64,000 nucleotides of DNA from an uncultured bacterium (GCA_963705505.1 CAVPJU010000005.1:1-64000); one strand, 5' to 3'. Shown: positions 3,686-58,697, counted from the first letter of the stretch. The notes: a model not told the origin generated them from the letters alone. Made by a program: numbers and translations.

Positions 3686-3777
3686 TATATTGGCTCAGGT
3701 AACCTAGAGCCAGGAGTTAAGGTGTGATGTACTCCTTGTTGGGGGTGCAACCGATTCCTTACTTGTTCGGAATCGTT
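3686..3777 (+). mobile_element. 92-nt structured cassette inside a CCCCACCC..CCCTCCCC..GGGGAGGG hairpin
   Basis: Empty version of the host hairpin at ~57200-57243; near-identical filled copy at 15646-15737. Confidence 0.7.
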
Positions 3778-4186
3778 CCCCACTTTAGAAAGGGGGGAGG
3801 GAAATTTATATGCTGGCGCTTGCCCGGCGCCGATTCTGTGATGTCGGGGAAAAAAGACTGGATTCCCGATTTCTCGGGAATTACAAGTATATTAAGGCAT
3901 ATACTCACCCGCTCGTGATCGTTCCATCCGGGGAGAGGGAAATAGTTTCAAAGTTTAGATGGCCACCCCTTTTACATGCGCATATCTTGCTCCGCGGCCT
4001 ACCCGCAGGGACCGGCATATTTCAGCTTATATATTTTCCCCATTACCGCGATATTATAGGGTAGACTTAAATGATTCGTGCTGTCACCATGGCAATACTT
4101 ATTCTAAAATCTTAATTCTGAAGAAATATCGGAACAGAAACGGCGAAGGAAATGGGCGTGTGAATACGTATCAATGATTCAGGGCC

Positions 4187-5392
4187 ATGGATAAAAATAG
4201 TATCTCGAAGAAGATAAGGTACCTCCCGGGTAAGCTGCGTATGCCTCGCCTGCCGAACCCAGGCATCCTGAGGATCGCATACAAACTTCTGGTGAACGAC
4301 AAGGGGAAATTCGCGGCGCTCATTATGGGCATGACGTTCGCCGTCTTCCTGATGAACATGATGACGTCGCTTTTCTCGGGCGTCCTGCACAGGTCGTCCT
4401 CGACAATGATCAACATAGGAGCCGAGATATGGGTAATGGACCCTTCGGTTAATAACCCGTTAAACAGCATCCCGCTCCCCGATTACGTGCTCGACGCGGT
4501 GAGGAGCATAAACGGGGTTAAATACGCCGTACCGTTGTATACGGGCGGTGCTTTGGTGAAGCTCCAGGACGGCACATATCAGTCGGTTACCGTCATGGGC
4601 CTCGACGATACGAGTCTATTCGGGAGGCCCGAGCTGATAGAGGGCAACATCGACGACATATACGCTGAAAACGCATTCATCGTCGTCAAGGACGCGGAAT
4701 ACGCCAAGCTCGATTACCCGAAGCTCGGGACCGTGTTCGAGGTGAACGACCACAGGGGAGTCGTCGTCGGCCTCGCCAAGGCGACCACGGGCGGACTGTT
4801 CGGGAGCCCGACCCTGTATACGACGTACAAGAGGGCCGTCCAGTATTTGCCTAACACGAGATACACGACTTCGTACATACTCGTCGAGCCGAAGGACGAA
4901 GCCTCGGTAAAGCAGATTAAAGAAGAGGTTGCGAAGCTCGGATACCGCGCGGAGACGAAGGACGAGCTTATCCAGAGGATCGCCACTTACTACAAATACA
5001 AAACGGGGATCGGCACGAATATACTGATAATGACCGTGATAAGCTTCATCGTCGGACTCTCCATCTCGGGGCAGACATTTTATACGTTCGTGCTTGAGAA
5101 TATGGAGAAGTTCGGGGCGCTCAAGGCCATAGGGGCGAAAGGCTCCGAGCTCATATACATGATCCTCTTCCAGGCGTCGCTCACGAGCCTGACGGGCTAC
5201 GGGATAGGCATCGGCTCGAGCACTCTCCTCATCATGATCGCGAAGATGAGGCTGCCTTCGTACGCGTCGATCATAACGTACTCGAACCTCGGACGCGCCT
5301 TCGTGATGATGCTCATAATCGCCGGCATCTCGAGCTACATAGGCGTGAGGAAAGTAATAAAGATAGAACCGTTCGATATATTCAGGGGTTAA
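4187..5392 (+). CDS. ABC transporter permease (DevC/FtsX-like)
   Basis: N-terminal TM, periplasmic domain, FGALKAIGA motif, three C-terminal TMs. Confidence 0.9.
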   Translation: MDKNSISKKIRYLPGKLRMPRLPNPGILRIAYKLLVNDKGKFAALIMGMTFAVFLMNMMTSLFSGVLHRSSSTMINIGAEIWVMDPSVNNPLNSIPLPDYVLDAVRSINGVKYAVPLYTGGALVKLQDGTYQSVTVMGLDDTSLFGRPELIEGNIDDIYAENAFIVVKDAEYAKLDYPKLGTVFEVNDHRGVVVGLAKATTGGLFGSPTLYTTYKRAVQYLPNTRYTTSYILVEPKDEASVKQIKEEVAKLGYRAETKDELIQRIATYYKYKTGIGTNILIMTVISFIVGLSISGQTFYTFVLENMEKFGALKAIGAKGSELIYMILFQASLTSLTGYGIGIGSSTLLIMIAKMRLPSYASIITYSNLGRAFVMMLIIAGISSYIGVRKVIKIEPFDIFRG

Positions 5393-5393
5393 C

Positions 5394-6098
5394 ATGGCGA
5401 ATCTGGCTATTGCTGCCGACGGGCTTATCAAATGGTTTGGGGAAGGAGACGCACAGACCTACGCAGTGAGAGGCGTGAGCTTCGAGGCGCACTTCGGGGA
5501 AATGCTCTATATAGAAGGGCCTTCCGGGAGCGGAAAGACTACGCTGCTGAGCATCATCTCGGGTATCCTCCGGCCTAACTCGGGCTCGGTCAAGGTCAGG
5601 GGCACGGATATCTGGAATCTCACGAGCGACGAGCTCGCGGATTTCAGGCTGAACACAATCGGGTTCGTCTTTCAGGACTATCACCTCTTTCCGCGGCTGA
5701 CCACGGTTGAGAACGTGGCCATTCCGCTCATACTGAAAAAACGCGACTGGAACGAATCCATGAAGCTGTCCATGGAATACCTTGAAATAGTGGGGCTTAA
5801 AGACAGGGCGAGCCTGCCCCCGTTCAAGCTGAGCGGCGGAGAGCAGCAGCGCGTCGCCATAGCGAGAGCGATCGTCGGGCATCCGGATATCCTGATATTC
5901 GACGAGCCGACGGCTTCGCTCGACGGAGACACGGGGAGAAAGATCGTGGATTTCGTGAAGAAAAATATACTGGATGAAAGCAGGTGCATCGTGATCGTTA
6001 CACACGACAGCAGGATATCCGAGTATGCGGACAGGATAATCAGGATCGAGGACGGACATATTATCGGAATCGAAAACGGAGGTCAGAGTGAGGAATAG
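5394..6098 (+). CDS. ABC transporter ATP-binding protein
   Basis: Walker A GPSGSGKT, LSGGEQQRVAIARA, DEPT, VTHD. Confidence 0.95.
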   Translation: MANLAIAADGLIKWFGEGDAQTYAVRGVSFEAHFGEMLYIEGPSGSGKTTLLSIISGILRPNSGSVKVRGTDIWNLTSDELADFRLNTIGFVFQDYHLFPRLTTVENVAIPLILKKRDWNESMKLSMEYLEIVGLKDRASLPPFKLSGGEQQRVAIARAIVGHPDILIFDEPTASLDGDTGRKIVDFVKKNILDESRCIVIVTHDSRISEYADRIIRIEDGHIIGIENGGQSEE

Positions 6099-7192
6099 GG
6101 TTATATTCGCGATCGCGATCGTAGGCATACTAGCCGGACTCGTGACCGCGTACATTCAAGGGAGAGAGAAAAAGGCGCTCCCGCCCGTATATGCGCCGGC
6201 GTCGAATCCGTACGGGAAAGGCATTTACGCTAACGGCATCGTCGAGAGCTACCAGACGAGCGGTGAAAACATAAATATATACCCCGAGGTTTCAGGTACG
6301 GTCGTGAAAATCCCCGTCACCGAAGGAGAGCACGTGCCCAAAGGGACTCCGCTTCTGATCATGGACGACTCCGTTCAGAGGGCTGTCGCGCTCCAGCAGA
6401 AAGCCCAGGCGGAATCCGCGAAGGCGATCCTCGAAGAGCTTAAAGCGCAGCCGAGGAAAGAGAACCTCGATGTAGCGAAGGCGCAGGTAGATTATGCGAG
6501 CGCCAACGTCAAGAACACGGAAGACCAGCTCGACAAACAGAAGCAATCGTTTCAGCTGAACCCGAAATCCGTCAGCAAGTATGCTCTAGACAACGCGGAG
6601 AACGCAGTGAAAGTAGCGAAGGCGAACCTCGAGGTCGCTCAGAAGCAGTATGAGCTCACCAAGGCAGGCGCATGGGTTTACGACATAAAAAACCAGGAGA
6701 ACCAGTACGAGGCCCTCTCGAAAGGCATACGAGGCCTCGAGCGCGCTGCTCGACAAGTACACGCTGAAAGCTCCCGTCGATGGTGTGGTCTTATCCGTCA
6801 GCGCCACTCCCGGAAGCTATATTTCGGCGCAGGGGACTTACGACTCGTACACCAGGGGATTTAACCCGGTGATTATGCTAGGCTCAGACCATCCGTACCT
6901 GAGCGTGCGCTGTTACATAGACGAAATACTTATCCACAGGCTCCCTGATCCGCAGGACATCAAGGCGAAGATGTTTATACGGGGGACGGACATAAGCGTC
7001 CCGCTCGAATTCGTGCGCGTACAGCCTTACGTATCTCCAAAGATAGAATTGTCCGACCAGAGGACGGAAAGGGTCGACGTGAGAGTGCTGCCTGTCATAT
7101 TCAGCTTCGAGAAACCTAAAGATACGGAAATTTATCCGGGACAGCTTGTTGACGTTTATATCGAGGAGCCTCAGGCGGAAAACAATAAATAA
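6088..7192 (+). pseudogene. HlyD-family membrane fusion protein, split by a +1 frameshift near 6721 (pseudogene or sequencing error)
   Basis: Lipoyl-like segment EVSGTVVKIPVTEGEHVPKGTPLL; removing one A from TCGAAAGGCA gives ALSKAYEASSALLDKYTLKAPVDGVV and joins ORF 6785-7192. Confidence 0.85.
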
Positions 7193-7228
7193 CGCCCGGC
7201 CCCGTCCGGAGGCCTGATCGGACAGACT

Positions 7229-8773
7229 ATGTTCAATGTAAAGAAAAACCGCGATGAAGGAATTATAGAAGATGACGAGAGCCGCAGGACATCAATGTTT
7301 ATAAGGCGTGTATCGGTGCTGCTATGCCTGATTTATCCGTTATACATGGCGGGCTGCGCGGTCGGGCCGAATTTCAAAGAGCCCGAACCGCCTCCCGTGG
7401 ACCGCTATACGAGCGGCGAGCAGCCGTCGTCGACTATCACGGCCGAGGGCCAAACGCAGCGTTTCGATGAGGCGGTCAAGCTCAATGCGGATTGGTGGCG
7501 TCTCTTTAATTCCTCGAAACTGGACGGAGTGATGAAAGACGCCTTCGCGGGCAATCAAACGCTCAAGTCGGCCGAGGCGAGCCTCCGTCAGAGCCAGGAT
7601 AACCTCCGCGCGGGCTACGGTGTTTTCCTTCCCCAGGTGGACGCGGGCGCGAGTGCATCGAGGCAGAAGTCTTCACCCCTTAGTTTCAGCGGCAATACCT
7701 CGAGCAGCATATTCAATCTCTATTCGCTCGCGGGGACGGTCAGTTACGCGCTCGACGTCTTCGGCGGCGAGCGCCGGGCGGTCGAGAGCCTGCAGGCGCA
7801 GGTCGATGTCGAGCGCTATACGGTCGTGGGCGCATACCTCACGCTCTCGGGGAATATAGTCAACACGATTATAGCCCAGGCCGCTTACCGGGAGCAGATT
7901 AAGGCGACGGAGGAGACGGTGAAGCTCGAGCAGGAGCAGGTCGATATCGGTAAAGCGCAGGCCGAGGCGGGCATTATTCCCTATTCTAACGTGCTCAGCC
8001 TGGAGAGCCAGCTATCGGCGACCGAGGCGAACCTACCAATACTAAAGCAGCAGCTGAGCCAGGCCGATCACCTGCTCGCCACGCTGTCCGGACGCACGCC
8101 GGCCGAGTGGAACCCGCCCGATGTGGAATTAGCCGACCTCAAGCTGCCTTCGGACCTGCCGCTGTCGCTGCCGTCGGACCTCGTCCGCCAGCGCCCCGAT
8201 ATACTCGCATCGGAATCTCAGCTGCACAGCGCGAGCGCGGGGATAGGGGTCGCCACTGCGGCTCTCTTTCCCAACTTCACTCTGAACGGGAATTACGGTT
8301 TTAACAGCACCAAGCTCGAGAACCTCTCTAAAAACGCGGTCAGCCTCTGGAGCATCGGGGCGGATATCGTAGCTCCGATATTTCACGGCGGGACATTATG
8401 GTACCAGCGGCGGGCCGCGATAGAAGCCTATAACCAGTCCCTGGCTGATTACCGTGAGACCGTGCTGAGCTCTTTTGAGCAGGTCGCCGATACTCTCCGC
8501 GCGCTCGAGCACGACGCCGAGACGCTGAAGGCTCAATCGGATGCGATGCAGCAGGCGGACGAAGCCCTCAGGCTCATTCAGGCGAATTACCAGGCCGGGA
8601 TCGTCGATTATCTGCAGGTCCTGATAGCGAACTACCAGTACTATCAGGCCAGGATCAGCTATATACAGGCGGTTGCACAGCGGCTCCAGGACACGGTCGC
8701 TTTCTATGTCGCGCTTGGAGGCGGCTGGTGGAATGCGGATCAGAGCTCCCCTGTGGCGCAGGTGCCGAAGTAG
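7229..8773 (+). CDS. NodT/OprM-family outer membrane efflux lipoprotein
   Basis: AGCAVGP lipobox, WW..F motif, RPDI, C-terminal ALGGGW; true start may be ~7295. Confidence 0.92.
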   Translation: MFNVKKNRDEGIIEDDESRRTSMFIRRVSVLLCLIYPLYMAGCAVGPNFKEPEPPPVDRYTSGEQPSSTITAEGQTQRFDEAVKLNADWWRLFNSSKLDGVMKDAFAGNQTLKSAEASLRQSQDNLRAGYGVFLPQVDAGASASRQKSSPLSFSGNTSSSIFNLYSLAGTVSYALDVFGGERRAVESLQAQVDVERYTVVGAYLTLSGNIVNTIIAQAAYREQIKATEETVKLEQEQVDIGKAQAEAGIIPYSNVLSLESQLSATEANLPILKQQLSQADHLLATLSGRTPAEWNPPDVELADLKLPSDLPLSLPSDLVRQRPDILASESQLHSASAGIGVATAALFPNFTLNGNYGFNSTKLENLSKNAVSLWSIGADIVAPIFHGGTLWYQRRAAIEAYNQSLADYRETVLSSFEQVADTLRALEHDAETLKAQSDAMQQADEALRLIQANYQAGIVDYLQVLIANYQYYQARISYIQAVAQRLQDTVAFYVALGGGWWNADQSSPVAQVPK

Positions 8774-8811
8774 GACATCCGTGCTTACGTTCGTTCGCTA
8801 CGCTTGAGACG

Positions 8812-9023
8812 CGGATAAAAGAGAAGGCAAAACGTATTTTCTTCTTTTCCTTGATGAAAAGAAGCAAAAATCGCGCACATAGTGTACTCTATGAAAGACA
8901 GCACAGAATGTAGCTAAAAATATCTTCTTAAGGCTAAAATGTTTTAATTCCACCCACATCCCTAAAACATTTTTACGCCTTAGTAATCTATTTTTTTAAC
9001 GCCAATTCTGTGAATGTCGGGGA
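8812..9023 (+). repeat. Composite intergenic element, copy 2 (empty apex)
   Basis: Same modules as copy 1; REP-like hairpins continue to ~9252. Confidence 0.9.
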
Positions 9024-9266
9024 AAGGAAAGGCAAAAGATACGATTTCTCGTGGGCACTCGAAATGACAGATAAAAAACGAGGACTGTATAAATCCTCCC
9101 CGGCCCTCCTTTTTCTAAGGAGGGGAATGATGGGAGAATCAAAGTAACACCCCCATCCTTCACCTTCCCCCTTGTTAAGGGGAAGGAAATAAATCGGCCC
9201 TTCGATCATTCGATTTCGCTCAGGACAGGCTCACTGCTCAGGGCGAACGGGTCTAAAGACGCCTAT

Positions 9267-10112
9267 TTACGCCGCATGTGTGAGTTTAACGTATTTATCC
9301 AGAACGGGCAGTACGGCGTCCTTCTCGCCGGGCGGAACGGCGAACACCATTCGTCCGACTCCGGCGTTCGTCAAATCGTCCACCATTTCCCGGTTCGGAC
9401 TTCCGTAGATAACGAATGTGACGGATATTTCTTCAGGGTCGCGGCCTGCCGCTTGAGCCTTCGCGCGGAGCTCCCGGATTTTCCCGGGCATCGTTTTGGG
9501 ATCGACTCCTGCGGGCAGCCATCCGTCGCAGAACTCCACGACGCGGTCGAATGTCGTAGGCCCCGCGCCGCCCATAAGGACCGGGGGGTGCGGTTTCTGG
9601 AGCGGTTTCGGATAAGACCATATCTTGTCGAAATCCACGAACTCCCCGTGAAATTCGGCCTCCTCTTTGGTCCATATCTCCTTCATTGCGAGGACGCGCT
9701 CGCGCAGCACCCGCCACCTTTTTTTGAAATCCGTGCCGTGGTTCCCCATCTCCTCAGCATTCCACCCTCCGCCTATACCGAATATAAAGCGCCCGCCCGA
9801 CAGCGTGTCGAGGCTCGCGACTTCTTTCGCGGTGATAATGGGGTCGCGCTCTATTATCAAGCAGATTCCGCTCGCAATACGTAAACGGCTCGTGGCCGTC
9901 GCGGCCGCGGTGAGGGCGACGAAAAGGTCATATGTGTGCCAGTAATGTTTCGGCAGCTCGCCGCCTCCGGGAGCGGGGCTCCGTCTGCTTACCGGGATGT
10001 GGGTATGCTCGGGCATCCACAGAGATTCGAAACCGCGGTCTTCGACCTCGCGGGCCAAATCCGCCGGGGGAATGGCGTAATCCGTGGGGAACATGGAGAT
10101 TCCGAATTTCAT
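9267..10112 (-). CDS. LLM-class F420-dependent oxidoreductase
   Basis: GFESLWMPEHTHIP, SLDTLSGGRFIFGIGGGW, PKPLQKPHPP. Confidence 0.9.
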   Translation of the reverse strand: MKFGISMFPTDYAIPPADLAREVEDRGFESLWMPEHTHIPVSRRSPAPGGGELPKHYWHTYDLFVALTAAATATSRLRIASGICLIIERDPIITAKEVASLDTLSGGRFIFGIGGGWNAEEMGNHGTDFKKRWRVLRERVLAMKEIWTKEEAEFHGEFVDFDKIWSYPKPLQKPHPPVLMGGAGPTTFDRVVEFCDGWLPAGVDPKTMPGKIRELRAKAQAAGRDPEEISVTFVIYGSPNREMVDDLTNAGVGRMVFAVPPGEKDAVLPVLDKYVKLTHAA

Positions 10113-10274
10113 ATGATCGCTCCTCGAATAATCGTTCTTTTAAATAATAGTATGTATTGTACGGTGTTAAAGCGCCAGAGCAGTGAAGGGTTGATGAGGG
10201 ATTTACGGCGGACGGGCTCTGCTGCGTGAATGGAGAGAAGCGGGATGCAGGGTGACCTTCGACCCTTCGACTGC

Positions 10275-10495
10275 ACAGACACATAGTATGGTCTTTCGAA
10301 AAGACGGATAAAAGAGAAGGCAAAAGTATTTTCTTCTTTTCCTTGATGAAAAGAAGCAAAAATCATCCGACAGCACAGAATTGGGCTAAAAACAGATTAT
10401 CTCGGCTAAAATCTTTTAATTCAGCCCGCACCCCTAAAAGATTTTTACGTCTCGATACTCTGTTTTCTTAACGCCAATTCTGTGAATGTCGGGGG
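10275..10495 (+). repeat. Composite intergenic element, copy 3 (empty apex)
   Basis: Same modules. Confidence 0.9.
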
Positions 10496-10698
10496 AAGAA
10501 ACGACTTTCTGGATTGATATCGGTACTAGGGTAAACCCCCACCCAAACCCTCCCCCGTTAGGGGGAAGGAAGTTCATATGAAGGGGAGCGGGGATTGTAG
10601 AAGCCGCTGCCTGTGCCGGGGTGACGAAAAGGAAAAAAACGACTCGCAAATTCCACGGAATCCGGCATAATTATCAAGAGATTTTTGGAGGGTGATAA

Positions 10699-11524: not shown

Positions 11525-11810
11525 CAAAGGCAAAGATAGTTTCTTCTTTTCCTTGATGAAAAGAAGCAAAAATCACACACATAGTGTGGTCTCTCGAAAA
11601 GACAGCACAGAATTGGCTAAAAATCCCTCGTTAACGCTAAAATGTTTTAATTCCACCCCAATTAGTATTAAGGCTTAGCGAAGCAAGACTCATGACATTA
11701 TTGCATTTAGCGAATGGCGTCCGATTCCTTGCTTGCTCGGGATCGTCCCCTAAAACATTTTTCGTGCGTTAACGAGTGATTTTCTTAACGCAAATTCTGT
11801 AATGTCGGGG
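11525..11810 (+). repeat. Composite element, copy 4, with a single cassette (11659-11747) in the apex loop
   Basis: Arms TTAACGC/GCGTTAA and TGTTTTA/TAAAACA flank CAATTAGTATTAAGG..GGCGTCCGATTCCTTGCTTGCTCGGGATCGTC. Confidence 0.9.
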
Positions 11811-13368: not shown

Positions 13369-13425
13369 GCAGGAATAAATTTAAGGACGAGACCCTGAAG
13401 CTAGTTCAGGGTGACTAAATATAAC

Positions 13426-15061: not shown

Positions 15062-15431
15062 TATCTTCTTTTCCTTGATACAAAGAACCAAAAATCACAC
15101 ACATAGTGTGGTCTCTCGAAAAGACGGATAAGAGAGAAGGCAAAAGTATTTTCTTCTTTTCCTTGATGACTCGTCAGGGCGGAGCCTGCCGTAGCCTGGA
15201 AAGAAGCAAAAATCATCCGACAGCACAGAATTTGCTAAAAATCTCTTGTTAACGCTAAAATGTTTCAATTCTACCCCAATTTGTATTAAGGCTTAGCGAA
15301 GCAAGACTCATGACATAATTGCATTTAGCGAATGGCGTCCGATTCCTTGCTTGCTCGGAATCGTCCCATGAAAGATTTATCGACGCCTTAATAATCTATT
15401 TTCTTCACGCCAATTCTGTGAATGTCGGGGA
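15062..15431 (+). repeat. Composite element, copy 5, single cassette (~15277-15365)
   Basis: Same modules; extra insert ACTCGTCAGGGCGGAGCCTGCCGTAGCCTGG after TTGATG. Confidence 0.9.
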
Positions 15432-15645
15432 AAAGACAAAGGCTGGATTCCCGATCGTAGTCGGGAATGACAGGAATATTAATGTACACCCCCACCCGGA
15501 CCCTCCCCCTTTTCTTAAGGGGGAGGGAAATTTATATGTGGGCGCTTGCCCGCCGCTAATTCCGTGAATGTCGGGGAAAAAGACAAGATTCCCGATTAAG
15601 CCATTCGGGATTGATTGGTGTATTGAGGTAAACCCCCACCCGAAC

Positions 15646-15737
15646 TATATTAGCTCAGGCAACCTAGAGCCAGGAGTTAAGGTGTGACGTACTCCTTGTT
15701 GGGGGTGCAACCGATTCCTTACTTGTTCGGAATCGTT
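15646..15737 (+). mobile_element. 92-nt structured cassette, near-identical to 3686-3777
   Basis: Same ends and same host hairpin. Confidence 0.7.
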
Positions 15738-17377: not shown

Positions 17378-17675
17378 TTTCTTCTTTTCCTTGATGACTC
17401 GTCAGGGCGGAGCCTGCCGTAGCCTGGAAAGAAGCAAAAATCACACACGTAGTGTGTTTCATGAAAAGACAGCACAGAATTGGCTAAAAAGTGATTATTC
17501 CGGCTAAAATATTTCAATTCCACCTCAATTAGTATTAAGGCTTAGCGAAGCAAGACTCATGACATAATTGCATATAGCGAATGGCGTCCGATTCCTTGCT
17601 TGCTCGGAATCGTCCCGTAAAACATTTTCACGCCATAATAATCACTTTTCTTAACGCCAATTCTGTGAATGTCGG
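17378..17675 (+). repeat. Composite element, copy 6, single cassette (~17526-17614)
   Basis: Same modules. Confidence 0.9.
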
Positions 17676-18309: not shown

Positions 18310-18401
18310 TATTTTGGTTTAGGCGGCATTGAGCCGAGAGTTGAAGTCCTTCGGCGCCTTTGTTGGAAGGGCGTCCAATTGTGCGCTTGCTTGCAATCGT
18401 T
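18310..18401 (+). mobile_element. 92-nt structured cassette in a CCTTCACCT..GGGGAGAAGG hairpin
   Basis: TATTTTGG..GGGCGTCC-AATTG..CAATC-GTT. Confidence 0.7.
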
Positions 18402-30589: not shown

Positions 30590-30968
30590 AGATGATTTCT
30601 TCTTTTCCTTGATGACAACGACAGGGCAGGATCCACACGTAGCCTGTGTATTCAAGAAGCAAAAATCATCCGACTGCACAGAATTGGCTAAAAATATACT
30701 ATCTTAAGGCTAAAATCTTTCAATTCCACCCTAATTAGCATCGTGGTTTACAGTGAAGCAAGACTCATGACATTGTTGCATTTGGGCAAGGGCGTCCGAT
30801 TCGTTTTGTTTTCTGCCGCTGCTGAACCAAACATTTGCATTGATGCACTCAGCGTAGGGCGTCCGGTTGTTCACTTGCTCACAACCGTTACTTACTCGGA
30901 ATCGTCCCCTAAAAGATTTTTACGTCTCGATAATCTGTTTTCTTAACGCCAATTCTGTGATGTCGGGG
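30590..30968 (+). repeat. Composite element, copy 11, double-nested cassettes (30732-30906)
   Basis: Inner cassette 30802-30889 keeps an intact hairpin GGTTGT-TCACTTGCTC-ACAACC. Confidence 0.9.
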
Positions 30969-36247: not shown

Positions 36248-36600
36248 GTTTCTTCTTTGTCTTGATACAAAGAAGCAAAAATCACACACATAGTGTGGTC
36301 TTTCGAAAATACGAAGAAAAAAGAAAGGCAAATATATTTCTCTTCTTTTCCGTTTGAGCCTGCCGTAGCCTGAAAAGAAGCAAAAATCACCGACTGCACA
36401 GAATTGTGCTAAAAATATCTTATTCCGGCTAAAATGTTTCAATTCCTCCCAAATTAGCTTCGTAGCTTATTGATATTCGAGGCTCATTACCTATCACTGA
36501 TAGGAAAGGGCGTCCGATTCCTTGCTTGCTCGGAATCGTCCCCTGAAAGATTTTCACGCCTTAATAATCTATTTTCTTAACGCAAATTCTGTGATGTCCT
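36248..36600 (+). repeat. Composite element, copy 12, single divergent cassette (~36450-36540)
   Basis: Same ends, different cassette interior. Confidence 0.88.
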
Positions 36601-42248: not shown

Positions 42249-42340
42249 TATTTTGGTTAAGGAAGCATTTAGCCTGAAGTTAAGTGGCTTTGTTGCTTTT
42301 GTTGGGAAAGCGTCCTACTGCTCGCTTACTCGCAGCAGTT
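42249..42340 (+). mobile_element. 92-nt structured cassette
   Basis: TATTTTGG..AGCGTCC-TACTGC-TCGCTTACTC-GCAGCA-GTT inside a CCCCACCC..GGGGAGGG hairpin. Confidence 0.7.
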
Positions 42341-45235: not shown

Positions 45236-45503
45236 TTTTCTTTTTCTTGAACAAGAAGCAAAAATCACACACGTAGTGTGGTCTTTCGAAAAGACAGCAC
45301 AGAATGAGGCTAAAAACACTATTAACGACTAAAATCTTTTAATTCCGCCCCAATTAGTATTAAGGCTTAGCGAAGCAAGACTCAATGACATAATTGCATT
45401 TAGCGAATGGCGTCCGATTCCTTGCTTGCTCGGAATCGTCCCCTAAAAGATTTTTACGTCTCGATAATCTATTTTCTTAACGCCAATTCTGTGAATGTCG
45501 GGG
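45236..45503 (+). repeat. Composite element, copy 15, single cassette (~45351-45440)
   Basis: Same modules. Confidence 0.9.
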
Positions 45504-45575: not shown

Positions 45576-45666
45576 TGATTTGGTTTAGGCAACGTTGAGA
45601 CGGAAGCTAAGGAACTCCTGCGCTTTTTTGGAAAAGCGTCCGATTGCTTACCCGTGCGTAATGGTT
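45576..45666 (+). mobile_element. 91-nt structured cassette
   Basis: TGATTTGG..AGCGTCC..GTT inside a CCTTCACCTT..GGGGAGAGG hairpin. Confidence 0.65.
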
Positions 45667-46538: not shown

Positions 46539-46713
46539 TATTTTGGCTCAGGCATTGTTGAGCCGGAGATAAGCACCTTCGTTGCCTTTGTTGTAAGTGT
46601 GACCTACTTATTTTGGCTTCAATAGAGTATCCCAAGAACATTAGCATTTCAGTATTCAACCAGAGGCGACCGGATTCTCGCTTATTCGAATCCGTTGCTT
46701 GCTCGAAGCAGTT
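46539..46713 (+). mobile_element. Double-nested cassette (inner 46609-46696)
   Basis: Inner ATTTTGG..GCGACC-GGATTC-TCGCTTATTC-GAATCC-GTT inside the outer terminal hairpin. Confidence 0.7.
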
Positions 46714-51046: not shown

Positions 51047-51136
51047 TTTTTTGGATTGATAGACGAATGACCGTGGAACAGGTTCGCTGTCACATTTAGC
51101 CAAAGGCGCCCCATTCCTCGCTCATCCGAAATTGTA
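51047..51136 (+). mobile_element. Degenerate structured cassette within CCCGGA..TCCGGG
   Basis: TTTTTTGG..GGCGCCC..TCGCTCATCC..GT. Confidence 0.45.
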
Positions 51137-51220
51137 GTCCGGGACATAGTTCAGGATGACTGTAAATGGATTCCCGATCGTAGTCGGGAATGACAGGAAT
51201 TTTAAGGTACTCCCTCACCT

Positions 51221-51312
51221 TAATTTGGATTAAGGAACAATTAGCCGGAGGTCCAGTAGCTTAAGTGCGGTTACGGTAAGATGTCCTATTTCTCCTATTT
51301 GTCGAAATAGTT
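51221..51312 (+). mobile_element. 92-nt structured cassette
   Basis: TAATTTGG..ATGTCC-TATTTC..GAAATA-GTT. Confidence 0.65.
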
Positions 51313-51360
51313 CCCTCCCTCGTGGGGGAGAGGAAATCAAACAAGGAAAGGAATTAATAA

Positions 51361-51789
51361 TCACAAGCGCGGGCGTTCGCTCTCGATTATTTCGGCGACG
51401 TCCGACATTTCCTTCCCGAGGAGAAAGATGACGTCGTCGAGCGTTATTATGCCCTTGATCGCGCCGTGATTGTCCACGATCGGAAAGCGCCTCACGCTGC
51501 TGCCGCTCTCCTTTATCTGCTCGAGGGCTTCGTATAAGCCCGTCCCCTGGTTAAGGGTTACAAGCTCGAGGGACATTATATCGGCTACCAAACATTTCGC
51601 CGGGTCAAGACCCTTGTTGACTACCCGTATCACGACGTCCCTGTCTGTGACGATGCCGACCGGCCTGTCGTTCTGAATGACGACTACGCTCCCTACGTTC
51701 TTTTCTTCCATAAGCTGTGTCGCTTCTATTACTTTTGTTTTGATGTCTACACAGGCTATCTCTCTGCGGCATAAAGTTTCAAGACTCAT
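51361..51789 (-). CDS. CBS-domain protein
   Basis: VGSVVV, GIVTDRD, GIITLDD. Confidence 0.92.
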   Translation of the reverse strand: MSLETLCRREIACVDIKTKVIEATQLMEEKNVGSVVVIQNDRPVGIVTDRDVVIRVVNKGLDPAKCLVADIMSLELVTLNQGTGLYEALEQIKESGSSVRRFPIVDNHGAIKGIITLDDVIFLLGKEMSDVAEIIESERPRL

Positions 51790-52043
51790 GTGAATGTCCC
51801 TCCTTCTTATATTTTAACACGCGGCTGCGCGCCGGTCTCGTATTATTGTGCAATGTGTGTGCCGCGGGCGAGGGAATTCCATAACCTGCTGTGGAGAAAG
51901 GAATATTCCGCTTTCTTCATGCTCATACCCCGTAATGTGTCAGCTTTCGAGTGTCAGTATTCAGGACATACGACGAAGGATGCGGCGGGGGAGGGGCACA
52001 AATAGGGTTATGCATCGGGGGAAAACTCGGTCAAACTATTAAC

Positions 52044-52553
52044 GTGACGGTCAGGGTAAGGCGGGAGAAGCCTGTGGATATATGGGATATATATAATATC
52101 AACCTCCTCGCGTTCGGCAGGGCGGACGAGGGGAGGCTAGTCGACAGGCTGAGAGGGGAGGCTAGTCCCTTCATATCGCTCGTCGCCGAGGACGGGGACA
52201 GAGCTGCCGTGGGACATATTCTATTCACTCCCGTCACAGTGGGGGACTCTCCGCTGAGGGCCGCAGGTCTCGGGCCGATGTCGGTGCTGCCGGAGCGTCA
52301 GGGGATGGGCACGGGGTCCGTGCTCATAAAGGAGGGGCTCGTAGCCTGCGCCGGAGAGGGGATAGAGGCCGTGTTCGTCCTGGGGCACCCGGAGTACTAC
52401 TCGAAGTTCGGGTTCCGGCACGCGTCCGGGAAGGGGATTTACTGGAAGAGCGAAGAGTTCGCCCCTTATTTCTTCGTCATCGAGCTTGCAGACGGGGCGC
52501 TCGACGGTGTAACCGGGGAGGCGAAGTATCACCCGGCATTCGATGAAGTGTGA
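52044..52553 (+). CDS. GNAT N-acetyltransferase (YhbS-like)
   Basis: VGHILFT, LGPMSVLPERQGMGTG, VLGHPEYYSKFGF; start uncertain. Confidence 0.88.
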   Translation: MTVRVRREKPVDIWDIYNINLLAFGRADEGRLVDRLRGEASPFISLVAEDGDRAAVGHILFTPVTVGDSPLRAAGLGPMSVLPERQGMGTGSVLIKEGLVACAGEGIEAVFVLGHPEYYSKFGFRHASGKGIYWKSEEFAPYFFVIELADGALDGVTGEAKYHPAFDEV

Positions 52554-52614
52554 GGCGGGGAGATGGCGGGGCGGAGGAGTGGGGGTCGTTGAGCAGCGCA
52601 CATTCGGCGGATTA

Positions 52615-53137
52615 TTTTTTTCTTTGTCCTGATAACAAAAAAAATCAGCACACACAGTGTGTGGATTATGAAAAAGACAAAGAAAGGCAAATATTATTTC
52701 TTCTTTTCCTTGATGAAAAGAAGCAAAAATCACACACGTAGTGTGTTTCATGAAAAGACAGCACAGAATTAGCTAAAAATATCTTATTAAGGCGAAAATC
52801 TTTCAATTCCGCCCCAATTAGTATCAAGGCTTAGCGAAGCAAGACTCATGACATAATTGCATTTAGCGAATGGCGTCCGATTGTTTTGGCTTGAGTAGAT
52901 TATCCGAAGAACATCAGCATAGTGCATTCAGCTAAAGTCGTCCGATTGTGCGGTTTTTGATTTTTTTACTTGGTGCCCAATACATTTGCTTTATTGAAAT
53001 CTACCACTGGCGTCCAGTTCTTACGCTTGCTCAGAACTGTTGCTTACAATCGTTACTTGCTCGGAATCGTCCCATGAAAGATTTATTGACGCCTTAATAA
53101 TCTATTTTCTTAACGCCAATTCTGTGAATGTCGGGGG
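52615..53137 (+). repeat. Composite element, copy 17, triple-nested with an alternative middle cassette (~52815-53071)
   Basis: Middle stem GATTGT/ACAATC. Confidence 0.9.
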
Positions 53138-53189
53138 AGAAAAAGGCGTTCGGGAATGGCAGGAATATTGAGGTAAACCCCCACCAGAC

Positions 53190-53281
53190 TATTTTGGTTT
53201 AGGAAACGTTTAGCCTGAAGTGAAGTGGCTATGTTGCTATTGTTGGGAAAACGTCCTGACTGCTCGCTTGCTCGCAGCATG
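53190..53281 (+). mobile_element. Structured cassette related to 42249-42340
   Basis: TATTTTGG..ACGTCC..TCGCTTGCTC. Confidence 0.65.
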
Positions 53282-53369
53282 CCCTTAAGAAAAGGGGAGG
53301 GAAATTATTGAAAAATGTTTGATATGCGGGATCACCGCAGAAATCGTAGAATCGCGCTGTTTGCGTGTG

Positions 53370-54233
53370 CTAATACGAGTCTTCGATCCGGCGGGGGAAG
53401 CTGAAGACAGCGTCATCCAGCTTGGCGTTAATTTCAACCGTCGATACCTTTATTACTTCACTGCCCTCTCCGCTCTCTACGTCGAACTTGAAGTAGTAGG
53501 GGATGACCACACCGCCCGTTTCGATGTATTGATCGATTGTCGTGGTGGACGGAACTTCCTTGTCCTTAACTTTAGTAGTCCCTTTCACCAAGAACGGAAG
53601 GTATGTTTTGGCGTCGAGGTAGTAATAATCGACGTTCCCGCTTTTGAATCCGACCTTTATCTTGTAGGCGTCGTGGCCGTCGACTTTTTCCATTCCCATC
53701 AGCTCGATTTTATGACCTTTGTGCTTGTAGTCGATGAGCGGGCCGTCGAAGTCACACGTCTCCTTAAGGTCTTCCGCCTCGTCGCCCTTAAGCAATTCGG
53801 GCGCGCTGCCTTGGGTCGTGGGGTTGAATTTCCATGCGTCTTTACCGTCGTAAGACTGAATGAAATAGATGTGGCCGAGACTGAAGTCTATCCTGCACTT
53901 ATCGGGGCGCTTGTACACAATCGCCATCTGGAAGAGCTTACCCATCGAATCCATCTTGCCGGTGTATTTGAGCGAATGGACGTCGTTCCATTTCGCGGGG
54001 CCGCCGATCGCGTCGAAGTATTTGGTCAATATAGTGTCGAGGTCTTTGTCTGCTGGTACGGGAGCGGGTTCTTCCACCTGACCGGGCTGTTCCCGGGCTG
54101 CTTTATCAGGGGCAGCCGGCTTCTGCTCGGCCGTCTTCGGCTTCTCCTTTTCATCCGCGCGTCTGCACGAAACCATTCCCAGTAATCCGGTTACGGCTAT
54201 AGCAATCAAAATGACGTATAAATTCCTTCGCAT
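53370..54233 (-). CDS. Lipoprotein, probable LolA-like / lipoprotein-sorting fold
   Basis: GMVSC lipobox; YFDAIGG, YDGKDAW, YYLDAKTYLP. Confidence 0.75.
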   Translation of the reverse strand: MRRNLYVILIAIAVTGLLGMVSCRRADEKEKPKTAEQKPAAPDKAAREQPGQVEEPAPVPADKDLDTILTKYFDAIGGPAKWNDVHSLKYTGKMDSMGKLFQMAIVYKRPDKCRIDFSLGHIYFIQSYDGKDAWKFNPTTQGSAPELLKGDEAEDLKETCDFDGPLIDYKHKGHKIELMGMEKVDGHDAYKIKVGFKSGNVDYYYLDAKTYLPFLVKGTTKVKDKEVPSTTTIDQYIETGGVVIPYYFKFDVESGEGSEVIKVSTVEINAKLDDAVFSFPRRIEDSY

Positions 54234-54396
54234 CGGGCTACTCCTGAGTTTGTGTAGATACGATAATGAAGATTATAGGAAAAAGCTGGAATTACAATAG
54301 GAATTTAAAGGAACACCTTGATACGGGATAATCCGGGCGTAACAATGAGCCGCGCCATCGGTCAAGATGCGCCGATAATAAATATGAGGCAGGTAT

Positions 54397-55140
54397 TTAA
54401 CCGCCATATTTAAAGACGATTATACGGCAGGGCTCGCACCTGTACGCGTGGAGCTTGGGGCGCTTCACCCAGAAGGCCGTGCCCGGGAGTCCCGTCAGCA
54501 TGGTGGGGATTCCTATGGGGTCCTCCCTGTCCCTCCACGAGACGCCGCCGACTGTGGGCATGTAGCCTTCCGTCATCGGCGCGCCGCATTTCGGGCAGGC
54601 GAGTCCGCCTACGGGCATGCCGAGATCAGTCGTGAGGGGGACGAGTTTATCGCGTGGCGGTTTCCTGAATGACTTGTATATATAGTAGGTGAATCCGGCA
54701 GCGAGAAGGAGCAGGAATAGGGCGACCGCGACGAGGGACATAAGGAGATAAAGGTTAAGCTCGACGCTGTCGGGGAGAGTGCATTTCGACGGGTCTTCAG
54801 GGAGGTAGACCACGTTCAATATATCGTGCCTGGCTATGACGTCGTATGTGTATTTCGTCACGCGGAGAGTGCAGGCGGAGGTGATCCCCCGCGGCATGCG
54901 CAGGGAAACCACGATGCGGTGGTCGTCGGAAGGGGAAGTGATGCTTGCCCTGACGAGGCGTCCGTCCTCCATTATCCCCTTCATCGCGACTACAGCTGTC
55001 GTTTCGACGCCTCTGTCGCTGAGGGTTTCGTAGAACAGTAAGTCTCCGGCGTATTTGTAGAGTATCCAGGCGGGCACTGCAGCGAGCAGGACGAGGACGA
55101 GGATGGGGACGATTAGTTCGCTCTTGTTCTTCATTATCAT
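54397..55140 (-). CDS. Membrane protein with C-terminal zinc ribbon
   Basis: Two TMs; CPKCGAPMTEG..AYRCEPC. Confidence 0.75.
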   Translation of the reverse strand: MIMKNKSELIVPILVLVLLAAVPAWILYKYAGDLLFYETLSDRGVETTAVVAMKGIMEDGRLVRASITSPSDDHRIVVSLRMPRGITSACTLRVTKYTYDVIARHDILNVVYLPEDPSKCTLPDSVELNLYLLMSLVAVALFLLLLAAGFTYYIYKSFRKPPRDKLVPLTTDLGMPVGGLACPKCGAPMTEGYMPTVGGVSWRDREDPIGIPTMLTGLPGTAFWVKRPKLHAYRCEPCRIIVFKYGG

Positions 55141-55309
55141 TGGATATTTATGATTTAACAGCGTGCCGGGCCTGGCCGCATGCCCCTGACCGGGTGTTAC
55201 GGGTAATAATACATCTCTTTATGATATTCTGAAAAAGGCTCAGGGCGAACGGGGTTTCGACGCTAGATTGCCGCGTTTCATTTCAATACGCCTGCAATGG
55301 CAAAGAGAA

Positions 55310-55665
55310 GGCAAAGATATCTCTCTTCTTTTCCTTCAGGAAAAGAAGCAAAAATCGCACGTGTGTGCGTTTTATGAAAGACATAGAACAAAGATAAGGC
55401 AAACATATTTTCTTCTTTTCCTTGATGAAAAGAAGCAAAAATCATCCGACAGCACAGAATTGGCTAAAAACAGACTATCTCGACTAAAATCTTTTAATTC
55501 AGCCCCAATTAGTATTAAGGCTTAGCGAAGCAAGACTCATGACATAATTGCATTTAGCGAATGGCGTCCGATTGCTTTGGCTTGAGTTGCTCGGAACCGT
55601 CCCCTAAAAGATTTTTACGTCTCGATAATCTGTTTTCTTAACGCCAATTCTGTGTATGTCGGGGA
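55310..55665 (+). repeat. Composite element, copy 18, internally deleted nested cassette
   Basis: GGCGTCCGATTGCTTTGGCTTGAG joined directly to TTGCTCGGAACCGTCCCC. Confidence 0.88.
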
Positions 55666-55809
55666 AAAGAAAAGATTTTCGGGAATTACATGTCCCTGCG
55701 TTCTTCGATCCTTCAACAGGCTCAGGACGAACGGGGTGGAAAATGAGATTCTGAAACAAGTTCAGAATGACTGATATTTTGTGAATGAGAGGTAGATGCG
55801 ATGTGTGCA

Positions 55810-56667
55810 TCAGGGCATGTTGAAAATGCCGGGGTCGAGTGACGAATTCAGTGTGACCGATTCCACAACGTAATCTTCGTGGGGTCCGCCGCCTTTCTTG
55901 TCGATCGCGAGTCTGAAGGGGACGACGACGTTCCCGGTTTTCCTGTAGTCTTCGAATTTCGTCATCATTACGATCTCGCTGCCTTCGACCGTGTAGAACC
56001 CGATCGTCTTGAGGGGGAGGAACCTGGACGCGTCGAGGAAATAGAACTGGAAATTCCCCGTGGGGTATGTGACCTTTATCTTGTAAGTCTCTTTGCCGTC
56101 GACGGACTCCATGCCCTCGAGCGAGACCTTGTGTTTCTTCTTCGCGTAGTCGATGAGCGGGCTTTCGACACCGCACCTGTCGCTGAGGTAATTCGTACGC
56201 GCGCGGTCGAGGGGCTCCGGGGAGGGCTTGTCCGAGATGGGGTTTTGCTGCCACGCGGTCTCCCCGTTATACGCCTGAATGACGAGCTTGCCGCCTATCG
56301 AGTATTCGACCCTGCATTTATCGGGGCGCATGTACTCCGCGGTCGTGGTGAACTCCCTCTTCTGGGAGAGTATTTTCCCCTTGATTACCAATGTGTTTAC
56401 AGACTGCCAGCTTCCGAGACCGCCTATCGCCCGGTAGTAATTACGGAGGACTTCATCGAGTGTGAGGCTTTTCGCGGCGTCGTTGACTGCCGCCGGCTTA
56501 TCTGCCGGGGGCTCCGCTTTTACGGGCTGTTTAGGCTCACTTTTGGCGATCACGTACGCTCCGCCGTCCTGAGACAGTGCGGGGAGAGGGAAAGATAGCG
56601 CTGCTATAAGCGCCGCTCCGATGAGTAGTCTGGTCAAGCCTTTGCTCCTGTATGGGTTTCGATGCAA
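55810..56667 (-). CDS. Secreted paralog of 53370-54233
   Basis: YYRAIGG, RPDKCR, YNGETAW, PLIDY. Confidence 0.75.
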   Translation of the reverse strand: MHRNPYRSKGLTRLLIGAALIAALSFPLPALSQDGGAYVIAKSEPKQPVKAEPPADKPAAVNDAAKSLTLDEVLRNYYRAIGGLGSWQSVNTLVIKGKILSQKREFTTTAEYMRPDKCRVEYSIGGKLVIQAYNGETAWQQNPISDKPSPEPLDRARTNYLSDRCGVESPLIDYAKKKHKVSLEGMESVDGKETYKIKVTYPTGNFQFYFLDASRFLPLKTIGFYTVEGSEIVMMTKFEDYRKTGNVVVPFRLAIDKKGGGPHEDYVVESVTLNSSLDPGIFNMP

Positions 56668-56807
56668 CGAAAAAGAATAAAGGATGGTGGGGGAATTTCA
56701 AAGGGGGAAAGGAAAGATGAGATTGCTGCGCTTTACTCCCGGATTTGCCAGCAGGCTACATCGGGACAAATCGCTCCCTCACAATGACAAAGAAAAAGTA
56801 TAGATAA

Positions 56808-57160
56808 TATCTTCTTTGTCTTGATACAAAGAAGCAAAAATCACACACATAGTGTGGTCTTTCGAAAAGACGGATAAAAGAGAAGGCAAATATATTTCTC
56901 TTCTTTTCCTTGATGAAAAGAAGCAAAAATCACACACGTAGTGTGACGACTGCACAGAATTGTGCTAAAAATATCTTAGTTAAGGCTATAATCTTTCAAT
57001 CCCACCCTAATTAGTATCAAGGTTTAGTGAAGCAAGACTCGTGAAATAATTGTATTTAGCGAGTGGCGTCCGATTCCTTACTTGCTCGGAATCGTCCCAT
57101 GAAAGATTTTCACGCCTTAATAATCTATTTTCTTAACGCAAATTCTGTGAATGTCGGGGA
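56808..57160 (+). repeat. Composite element, copy 19, single cassette (~57008-57096)
   Basis: Same modules. Confidence 0.9.
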
Positions 57161-57333
57161 AGAAGAAATACCCTCTGGATTGATAGGGGTACTAAGGTAA
57201 ACCCCCCACCCGAACCCTCCCCCACTTTGAAAAGGGGGGAGGGAAAAAATATTAATGCTTCGACAGGCTCTCGAAATGACGCAGATGATATTGCCTTGCT
57301 TCCTTGCAATGACGGATTAGAGATTGTGGTGAT

Positions 57334-57699
57334 CTATTTTTCCTCTTCGCTCAGGCGGTCGTAGGCGCGGTCGATGTGGACCTGCCATGGGGAAAGCTCG
57401 GGATGTGAGGAAACGAGGCGCGCGAGCTCGTCGATTTTGTCCCGTCTGCCCTTATGACTCCATATCTTCGCCCCAAGCTCTATCGCGGGGATGGTAGTGA
57501 TGTCGAACTCTCCCGAGAAGCGTTTCGTGTTTTCGATGAGGGAGGGGATGAGGGGGAGCGAGAGCTCGCAGTATTTCAGCACCATGAGGTTGTAGCCGTT
57601 CCGGACGTTTTCCGTGATCATGTTCAGGTAGTAGAAGTATTTGTCGACGTCGGCGGCGAGGTACTTGTCGCTTCCGGGGTCTGATTTAGTGTCTGACAT
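57334..57699 (-). CDS. Hypothetical protein
   Basis: ORF from MSDTKS with upstream purine-rich RBS. Confidence 0.65.
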   Translation of the reverse strand: MSDTKSDPGSDKYLAADVDKYFYYLNMITENVRNGYNLMVLKYCELSLPLIPSLIENTKRFSGEFDITTIPAIELGAKIWSHKGRRDKIDELARLVSSHPELSPWQVHIDRAYDRLSEEEK

Positions 57700-57990
57700 G
57701 GTGATTTCCTTTTGCTCCTGAAAAATATAATCGGAGGCGGGGGAAAGGCAATGAGGTGTCGGCAGCTTTCCATGATGGAAGGGAGTGGAGGAATGAAAAA
57801 GGATGCCTGAATTGACCCCGTGTCGTAGCACGGGACTGGGTTCAGGATAAGGTACAGAGGTATAATTGCGGGTGGAAGCCGTTCCTCCGGATTTAATACA
57901 CAAAAAATGAGATTATCTTGAACATTTTGAGGGATTTTGGGTGTATAATGAATGGAAATTATGCGGTTAATTCAAATAGGAGGATTCCTG

Positions 57991-58248
57991 ATGACGAGGA
58001 AAATTTTGTATATGGCGCTCGTGATTGGCGCGTTAGCTCTGGGAGCATGCGCCGGGCAGAACGAGAGCGCACAGCAGGACGACCACTTCGACATGAGCAT
58101 ATGCAACAACATCCCGGTAAGTGTCGAGGCGTACGAGGCGATGGATCCCAAAAGCAAGCAGGCCAAGATTAGCTGCGCCGATCTAGAGAGGTGCGCGTCG
58201 TATATGGGTAACGACACGCCGCCGAACGTGCCTTGTGAGGGGCCTTGA
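57991..58248 (+). CDS. Small Cys-containing lipoprotein
   Basis: RBS AGGAGG; lipobox LGAC. Confidence 0.7.
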   Translation: MTRKILYMALVIGALALGACAGQNESAQQDDHFDMSICNNIPVSVEAYEAMDPKSKQAKISCADLERCASYMGNDTPPNVPCEGP

Positions 58249-58381
58249 TTGTAATAGTATGGGAAATGGAGGATTAAGGAAAAACACCCCCATCCACACC
58301 TTCCCCCTTTCTAAGGGGAAGGGAATGAAAGGAATGGATTCCCGATCGTGGTCGGGAATGACAAAAAAATCCATCCTAACC

Positions 58382-58697
58382 TAATTTGGGATATAGCAAC
58401 ATTGAACCCGAAGTTAATCTCCTTCGGCGCTCTTGTAGGGGTAGGGCGTCCGAATGCGCGCTTGCTTGCGTTCGTCCCCCTTTACAAAACCCTCTCCCAT
58501 GCAGGGGAGTGGGAAATAAAAACTTGTATTGCCTGAGTGCCGTGGTAAGGAGACTTATTTGCAATCAGCCAATGGCGTCCGGTTCTTGCTAATTTGGTTT
58601 CTACAACATCAACACGGAGTGATATTCGCGTTCATGGATTCAACCAGTAGAGCGACCGAATTCTTCACTTGCTCGAGAATTGTTGTTCAGAACCGTT
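58382..58697 (+). mobile_element. One cassette (58382-58476) and a double-nested cassette (~58515-58697; inner 58590-58684)
   Basis: TAATTTGG starts; stems GAATGC/GCGTTC, GGTTCT/AGAACC, AATTCT/AGAATT. Confidence 0.65.

Follow-up and report, generated by a model that had tools for sequence, protein, structure and literature searches.

A family of cassettes about 92 nucleotides (nt) long lies within C-rich/G-rich intergenic repeats in a 64,000-nt stretch of DNA from an uncultured bacterium (GCA_963705505.1 CAVPJU010000005.1:1-64000). This stretch, here called the window, is bases 1-64000 of contig C5, a 74-kb contig that makes up 2.6% of the assembly. Copies of the cassette have spread to non-orthologous sites, nest within one another, hold a fixed orientation, carry one hairpin (H4) whose stem covaries, and co-occur across genomes with small GIY-YIG nuclease genes. 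Our preferred reading, to which we give an even chance, is that the cassette is a lineage-specific, non-coding, non-autonomous DNA module that is copied into structure-forming repeats, in a system resembling the Neisseria intergenic mosaic elements (NIMEs) and bacterial interspersed mosaic elements (BIMEs). By analogy, and with the balance again about level, it would behave like the RS units of the neisserial mosaic arrays or like a miniature inverted-repeat transposable element (MITE) that has no terminal inverted repeats.

The assembly (G000) comprises 2.88 Mb in 10 contigs and is 93.6% complete. Nine copies had been listed in an earlier reading of the window made from the sequence only; an nhmmer search with a profile built from them gave 39 hits in the genome, and a second nhmmer round was built on 16 full-length copies. 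A covariance model (R1) was built from alignment A1, a plain MAFFT alignment of 17 full copies, and used with a cut-off of E<=0.01. R1 matched the 2.88-Mb genome 52 times, far more often than chance would give, and the 19 matches on C5 were all on the + strand (19/19). When 101 genomes of relatives were searched with R1, 42 candidates being scored per genome, at least ~660 matches were found in 28 genomes. Among the cassette-bearing relatives were all nine other genomes of genus g1, 26 of the 32 of family f1 and one genome of a neighbouring family. Flanks were read for 97 top copies from five genomes (80 copies from four genomes with 150-nt flanks, plus 17 from G000).

Cassettes and their host repeats

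The cassette starts with TATTTTGG or TAATTTGG and ends in a 3' module composed of a conserved GGCGTCC, the H4 stem-loop (10-nt loop, for example TTGCTTGCTC) and CGTT. The H4 loop and the GGCGTCC that precedes it are conserved across genera while the stem covaries, and the GTC tag of H4 reads GAC in a large subfamily. Lengths among the 97 copies were 88 (1), 90 (1), 91 (17), 92 (61), 93 (13), 94 (1), 95 (2) and 99 nt (1); note that a global model alignment favors its own length. Since 91 of the 97 copies are 91-93 nt, the near-constant length is genuine and shared between species. The two ends, TATTTTGG and ...CGTT, do not form an inverted repeat with each other, so the classical definition of a MITE by terminal inverted repeats does not apply, and no target-site duplication flanked any of the 97 copies read.

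At all nine positions listed by the sequence-only reading a copy of the same repeat is present, each on the + strand (R1 scores of 48.1-96.9 bits). The eight unsplit copies are 92, 92, 92, 92, 91, 92, 92 and 95 nt long, and the lengths given in that reading were accurate. The copies at 3686-3777 (77.7 bits; in a C-block...G-arm host), 15646-15737 (74 bits; 97% identical to the 3686 copy), 18310-18401 (87 bits) and 42249-42340 (96.9 bits, the best model match) are each 92 nt, as are those at 51221-51312 (59.8 bits), from a subfamily with a TATTTC/GAAATA H4 stem, and 53190-53281 (72 bits), which has a degraded H3 and 3' end. The copy at 45576-45666 (74.5 bits) is 91 nt and that at 58382-58476 (75.6 bits) is 95 nt. 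The ninth copy, at 46539-46713 on the + strand, only looked truncated, because it is a full copy (46539-46608 plus 46697-46713) split in H4 by a nested copy at 46609-46696; R1 matched 46539-46629 (48.1 bits for the 46539 copy) and 46609-46696, and the junctions were read. Two further + strand units have the same arrangement, with junctions likewise read. At 58574-58697 (30.2 bits) a nested cassette (58590-58684) divides the H4 of an outer unit into 58574-58589 and 58685-58697, and at 30790-30906 (38.5 bits) a cassette at 30802-30889 is nested in the H4 of an apex-type unit.

Apex-type units are relatives that share the 3' module and occupy the apex of a long palindrome. The window has six, all on the + strand and scoring 24.9-34.9 bits as a set: 15277-15365, with GGCGTCC-H4-CGTC, and 11643-11747, 17510-17614, 36450-36540, 45358-45440 and 57008-57096. 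Their landing site is the C-rich apex loop of an imperfect palindrome of ~130 nt (CACAGAATTGGC...GCCAATTCTGTG), present at 8897-9026 and in ~12 further copies (families D6, D9 and D13).

That the cassettes interrupt C-rich/G-rich hairpins, as had been proposed from the window, is borne out in ~96 of the 97 copies, which lie between a C-rich block and a G-rich arm. The filled host reads C-rich block, 2-4-nt spacer, cassette, short loop and G-rich arm. The empty form, which the earlier reading had placed at ~57200, was found on the + strand at 57203-57246 (repeat family D20). There it reads C-block 1, spacer, C-block 2, loop and G-arm, a three-block motif of the BoxC/TM type in which the second C-rich block pairs with the G-rich arm and the first block mirrors the second. 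In a three-block mirror test of 53 asymmetric C/G-rich hairpins of the genome, the upstream block was closer to a mirror than to a direct copy in 33 and the reverse held for 7, with 13 ties. Genome-wide there are 57 such hairpins with a third block that is the mirror of the second. At positions matching an A of the purine arm, this block has A when read on the + strand and T when read on the - strand. Judged by its sequence, the third block would suit an intrastrand triplex of the antiparallel purine type formed by the - strand.

Excerpts from Holder et al. (2015, PMC4666352) give the BoxC/PIT/TM intrastrand triplex consensus as CCCTCNCCC N3-6 GGGNGAGGG N3 GGGNGAGGG. The host repeats have the three consecutive blocks that define those motifs, the triplex itself being predicted, and like them they place the three-block design on the - strand, are intergenic and are tied to variable loci. 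They differ in having longer first loops (7-10 nt) and T opposite A in the third block. Moreover, the three-block hosts are landing sites for a second repeat, a role that does not appear in the same excerpts of PMC4666352.

Other hairpins of the arrays (GGATTCCCGA...TCGGGAATGAC, AGATTGCCGCG...CGCAATGAC and AGATTTC...GAAATGAC) are, when read on the - strand, GTC-tagged and of the dRS3/NTS type. One of them lies at 15445-15471 (GTCATTCCCGA...TCGGGAATCC on the - strand) and is among 15 on C5, all 15 of which are on the - strand. In the genome 97 tagged hairpins of three stem types were counted, compared with 6 in a Markov control. Because the neighboring hairpins are of this dRS3/NTS (Ssn-related) type, the arrays resemble the neisserial NIMEs, described in excerpts from Bentley et al. 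(2007, PMC1797815) as dRS3 hairpins flanking 50-150-bp RS units and stated there not to be seen as arrays outside Neisseria. In both systems long intergenic arrays of small units are separated by ATTCCC...GGGAAT-type hairpins, unit families of 50-150 bp are many, syntenic arrays change fast and no transposase is known, as far as those excerpts go. The 92-nt unit differs from the NIME units described there in having its own hairpin, in nesting in other units and in belonging to a different phylum; in ~96 of the 97 cassettes the flanks are C/G-rich blocks, and not dRS3 pairs.

Module order in the arrays is fixed and the arrays are wholly co-oriented, four module families being on the + strand in 21/21, 19/19, 17/17 and 20/20 cases. 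Nearly every intergenic gap of the window carries the same ordered + strand module chain, whatever the gene direction. In relatives (G007 C10, G003 C2 and G009 C9) model matches are mostly co-oriented over 100-200 kb. Cassettes also occur in one orientation in the loops of GATTSC...GSAATGAC (NTS-type) hairpins near GIY-YIG genes (loci L209, L199, L200, L202 and L196), and further examples in NTS-type hairpin loops are at C10:50108 and C10:276498.

Copying, nesting and candidate enzymes

Copies at unrelated loci can be closely similar. A G000 copy and a G009 copy are 91% identical over 130 nt and the surrounding 3 kb share nothing, the loci being non-orthologous. Among the 97 copies there are 36 pairs with at least 93% identity, some of which belong to larger duplications. 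In pairs from different sites the identity stays high for ~15 nt upstream and 16-30 nt downstream, then falls to chance. Between conserved flanking genes (orthologous gene pairs), sister species carry wholly different module sets. Nesting in the H4 of another copy was seen three times in the window (30802, 46609 and 58590), at C9:42664, C9:37327 and C10:263704 elsewhere in G000, and also in G003. By comparison with uninterrupted hosts, about four host bases (CCTC, CCTT, GCTT, CTTC or TCTC) appear to be missing at the insertions.

An unlikely alternative, although the one that fares best, is that the cassette is not itself mobile and is the inner segment of a long three-block repeat, so that a composite of ~130 nt multiplies by recombination of the arrays. 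The same kind of flank around ~96 of the 97 top copies would follow from such a composite, as would the pairing of cassette subfamilies with host subtypes and the shared ~15 nt upstream and 16-30 nt downstream of near-identical pairs. Relatives with the 3' module, however, use four further host types and also nest within one another. Moreover, in three cassette pairs of 98-100% identity (G004 C1:615/C70:6915, G004 C43:1595/C105:91951 and G009 C9:35418/C2:83804), identity over the 15 nt upstream is only 60-87%.

Two half-copies in G000 (C6:394934 and C10:175743) were considered as ends of a longer autonomous element and rejected as such: they are internally deleted copies (C6:394934-395013 and C10:175695-175743) in which the 5' part and the host arm remain and H4 is missing. 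Two tRNA-Arg genes (CCT and TCT anticodons; G000 C8:189208-189470, locus L015, and C10:547140-547304, - strand) are each followed by cassette-like units of ~72 nt that have no H1 and terminate in a direct repeat of 14-15 nt from the tRNA 3' end; the first tRNA is followed by a tandem pair of units. The second tRNA has a C-terminal fragment of a tyrosine recombinase immediately upstream.

The enzyme survey covered 33 genomes of family f1, 27 of them cassette-bearing and 6 without cassettes. With the Pfam profile, GIY-YIG open reading frames (ORFs) of fewer than 220 aa were found in 23 of the 27 cassette-bearing genomes and in none of the 6 others, two UvrC-like fragments at contig ends (G011 and G019) being set aside by assumption. 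The hypergeometric chance of this distribution is ~2e-4, and for genus g2 alone (5/6 versus 0/4) it is 0.024, related genomes not being independent in either case. The four cassette-bearing genomes that lacked such an ORF are two drafts of 420-500 contigs and two genomes where the cassette matches were weak and numbered two or three. The single-domain genes encode 96-99 aa, and one used as query gave matches in 22 of the 33 genomes; NCBIfam and PDB sequence searches of the nuclease returned weak GIY-YIG matches only.

Excerpts from Chenal et al. (2025, PMC11893778) describe NTS/SRM hairpins that go with Ssn GIY-YIG single-strand nucleases, and give no explanation of how NTS-type repeats multiply. 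In G000 two Ssn-like GIY-YIG genes of 97-99 aa (C8:36501-36794 and C9:25887-26186, both on the - strand) have tagged hairpins beside them, and downstream of the C8 gene comes TGTCATTCCCGCGAAAGCGGGAATCG, a near-identical match to the NTS consensus of Neisseria given in those excerpts. The 96-99-aa single-domain genes flanked by GTC-tagged ATTCCC-type hairpins look like the NTS/SRM pairs described there. The published SRM pattern occurs within 400 nt of 43 of the 80 nearest GIY-YIG homologues from other phyla, and a GTC-tagged perfect hairpin was found at 75 of the 80 loci compared with 27 of 80 shuffled loci. On this evidence the small GIY-YIG genes are members of the hairpin-associated family. 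In relatives the GIY-YIG genes fall into three paralogue types, which are associated with three types of hairpin stem (ATTCC, ATTTC and ATTGC).

The cassette's own H4 resembles the NTS/SRM layout of those excerpts in having a short conserved tag, an ATTSC-type palindrome and a conserved base after it, and departs from it in its conserved 10-nt loop, in the one or two additional bases that separate tag from stem, and in the GAC tag of many copies. The strict published SRM pattern occurred 0 times in the window and 19 times in the genome, versus 12 times in a first-order Markov control. Cassette-like matches lie within ~150 nt of 9 of 30 small GIY-YIG genes, and cassettes occupy the loops of NTS-type hairpins rather than the upstream site of Ssn cutting reported in PMC11893778, as far as the excerpts describe it. 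The idea that cassettes are gene-less remnants of the ends of GIY-YIG units was rejected, as the sequences have the form of insertions into the genes' flanking hairpins. The GIY-YIG link is at the level of the whole repeat system, the F/J hairpins and the genome, and not of H4.

No other enzyme follows the cassette in the 33 genomes, whether Y1 HUH transposase, IS110 recombinase or reverse transcriptase. Y1 transposase (PF01797) was absent from G000 (93.6% complete) and present in 5 of the 33 genomes, two of which have no cassettes (G011 and G026); it was found in none of the seven g4 genomes that are rich in cassettes. IS110 recombinase (PF01548, DEDD) was absent from G000 and present in 6 of 33, with no link to cassette presence. 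Reverse transcriptase was found in 8 of 33 and in none of G000, G003, G007 and genus g4, and no TnpB was found in G000. An integron was rejected: TIGR02249 gave no match over cut-off in G000, the hits being Xer-like only, and the outer ends of the long palindrome are, by eye, unlike attC core sites.

The absence of inverted ends and target duplication, subterminal hairpins, oriented insertion next to a specific site and strand preference are features of IS200/IS605 elements. The cassette could accordingly be a palindrome-associated transposable element (PATE) of that type, moved as single-stranded DNA (ssDNA) by a trans-acting Y1 HUH transposase that is missing from most drafts. It has neither inverted ends nor target duplication, its hairpins are subterminal (H1 begins 7 nt in from the 5' end, and 3 nt separate H4 from the 3' end), it is inserted right after a C-rich site in one orientation, and all 19 C5 matches are on the G-rich strand. 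We nevertheless regard this as improbable. G000 has no Y1 gene, two of the five genomes that do have one lack cassettes, and the cassette-rich g4 genomes have none. A model search of the five Y1 loci with filters off gave one real cassette match, at G003, and it does not bracket the gene: a 208-aa Y1 (HUH) transposase-like gene on G003 C8 (L097:1276-1902) is separated by another gene from the cassette, which lies ~770 nt downstream. H1 does not exceed shuffled sequences in stability, and the IS200/IS605 mechanism does not predict the loss of ~four host bases. The cassettes share with REP (repetitive extragenic palindromic)/BIME, REPIN-RAYT and PATE systems the arrangement of strand-specific hairpin repeats in mosaic arrays with no inverted ends or duplication, and differ from them in that no Y1 transposase tracks the family.

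Fold and folding strand

The sequence-only reading had proposed a covarying fold of four hairpins (H1-H4). With these helices imposed on A1, 76.2% of cells paired, compared with 38-45% when the partners were slid (H1 72%, H2 67%, H3 78% and H4 85%). Two larger alignments were fitted to R1 and therefore lean towards the model structure: in 54 copies from several genera H1 was 69%, H2 62%, H3 75% and H4 92% paired, and in 107 copies (102 distinct) 76.3% of cells paired versus 40-44% when slid, with 70.9% for H1, 67.5% for H2, 72.1% for H3 and 93.1% for H4. The covariation score of the 107 copies was 0.291 compared with 0.184 for shuffled alignments, and none of 500 shuffles reached 0.291. Five of the seven H4 pairs had compensatory changes on both sides. 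A free RNAalifold prediction on the same 107 copies kept six pairs, all in H4 and five with compensatory changes.

Folding energies were ordinary. On each of the two strands, whole-copy z scores fell below -2 in 2 of 14 copies. In 102 copies the mean z of segments on the + strand was -0.23 for H1, -1.24 for H2 (median -0.37), -1.27 for H3 and -1.69 for H4; the whole element averaged -0.77 (+) and -1.33 (-), and H4 reached -2.52 on the - strand. H4 is thus a well-supported conserved hairpin, H3 and H1 are plausible with moderate support, and H2 is weak; the cassette is not an unusually stable four-hairpin fold. The proposed covarying fold therefore stands firmly for H4 and moderately for H1 and H3, and gives way at H2, RNAalifold retaining H4 alone. 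A stable four-hairpin RNA is contradicted by the weak H2 and by the z scores of H1 and of the whole element on both strands. Selection on a single-stranded structure, which had also been inferred, fits H4, with its covarying stem and conserved loop and GGCGTCC, and fits H3 and H1 less well.

Because of the ratios of G.T to A.C mismatches relative to slid controls, the argument that the + strand is the one that folds has weak support from H1 and H3 and is reversed for H4. The ratio was 4.6 for H1 (slid control 1.8), 5.9 for H3 (3.2) and 2.6 for H2 (1.8). For H4 it was 0.32 (slid control 1.35), and A.C made up 62% of the mismatches. The cells behind these ratios are copies and not events, which gives amplified subfamilies a heavy weight. 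In columns 86-111, 88-110 and 91-106 of alignment A3 the H4 mismatches are predominantly A.C when read on the + strand and G.T when read on the - strand, the direction opposite to that of H1 and H3.

These data bear on the possibility that the cassette is a structured small RNA, perhaps a guide of the bridge- or seek-RNA kind found in IS110/IS1111, or else an RNA that acts in cis. Covarying stems with conserved loops, a + strand excess of G.T over A.C beyond the composition control in H1 and H3, and a near-constant length across genera would all suit such an RNA, and IS110/IS1111 elements likewise land in REP-like hairpins. We consider it very unlikely all the same. H4 alone survives an independent consensus fold, the folding energies are ordinary, and the A.C mismatches of H4 become wobble pairs on the opposite strand. 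Nesting in each other's hairpins would destroy an RNA fold, and copies sit downstream of genes in sense, antisense in runs of minus-strand genes, and between convergent genes. IS110 is absent from G000 and present in 6 of the 33 family genomes. Rfam gave no match to the window at the gathering score, and with lax filters one chance match among 13 copies (E=0.083, below the gathering score). Assignment to a known RNA family, named beforehand as an outcome that would count against the proposed fold, was thus not obtained from Rfam; the same negative also tells against an RNA.

The suggestion that variable loops act as guides did not hold up, because the cassettes show no complementarity to their own flanks beyond that to the flanks of other copies. 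Scored as exact Watson-Crick pairs only, the longest complement averaged 4.89 nt with own versus 4.83 nt with other copies' flanks on the 5' side, and 5.38 versus 5.32 nt on the 3' side (n=97). Nor are the loops variable: they are the conserved parts and the stems vary. In comparison with IS110/IS1111 bridge or seek RNAs, the cassette has no recombinase, no loop-flank complementarity and half the usual size of a bridge RNA. In annotation, 92-nt units such as these should not be called small RNA genes from covariation alone.

A possible route of spread

In the preferred reading, that of a DNA module copied into structure-forming repeats, the cassette would lodge in one orientation inside hairpin-forming intergenic repeats and replace ~four host bases. 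Its main site would be between the third block and the hairpin of the BoxC/TM-type three-block motif, and relatives would use the loops of dRS3/NTS-type hairpins, the apex of the long palindrome and the H4 loop of other cassettes. The 3' module, GGCGTCC - H4 stem-loop - CGTT, would be the working core, the H4 stem covarying because the copying step needs a hairpin in ssDNA. Spread would occur by copy-in, through gene conversion or template switching, between structure-prone repeats that are exposed as ssDNA at the replication fork. Likely candidates for the trigger are Ssn-type nucleases or stalled replication. That nicks made by Ssn-type ssDNA nucleases start the copy-in is a tentative suggestion, possible and on the doubtful side. 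A non-coding homing module, in which an Ssn-type nuclease or stalling opens the host repeat and repair copies in the 92-nt module, seems to us decidedly improbable in that full form.

Several points weigh against this reading. No presence/absence difference at one orthologous site was demonstrated, because the nearest relatives are only 75-84% identical: a metagenome scan with a neighboring gene found relatives at 75-81% identity only, and the spacers of sister species at 77-84% identity are unalignable. The cassette ends and the four-base replacement are read from non-orthologous empty hosts, and hence remain approximate. Since one host type accounts for ~96 of the 97 copies and recent copies share flanks, the copied unit may be host plus cassette. 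The orientation agrees with local GC skew in 36 of 52 matches, mostly from one contig (19 share one contig, and C9 has both orientations). No enzyme is tied to the cassette itself, the GIY-YIG link running through the host hairpins, and that link could reflect all the repeat families sharing one lineage. H4 itself does not fit the SRM pattern, having C after GTC where the pattern needs A or T. Finally, the + strand excess of G.T in H1 and H3 is also compatible with an RNA.

Mosaic repeats are known in bacteria; what is new is a 92-base module lodged inside other hairpin-forming repeats. NIME-like arrays, BoxC-type motifs and NTS-type hairpins occur together here in an uncultured phylum, and the lineage offers a clean case for how NIME/BIME mosaic arrays grow, with a module of constant length in hundreds of copies across several genera. 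The landing sites are all structure-forming repeats, the copies nest, and the module co-occurs with Ssn-like nucleases and with no transposase. The question is tractable with a few oligonucleotides and two small proteins. If the homing-module form of the reading is true, structured DNA modules would spread from hairpin to hairpin without a transposase, which would explain how NIME-like mosaics are built.

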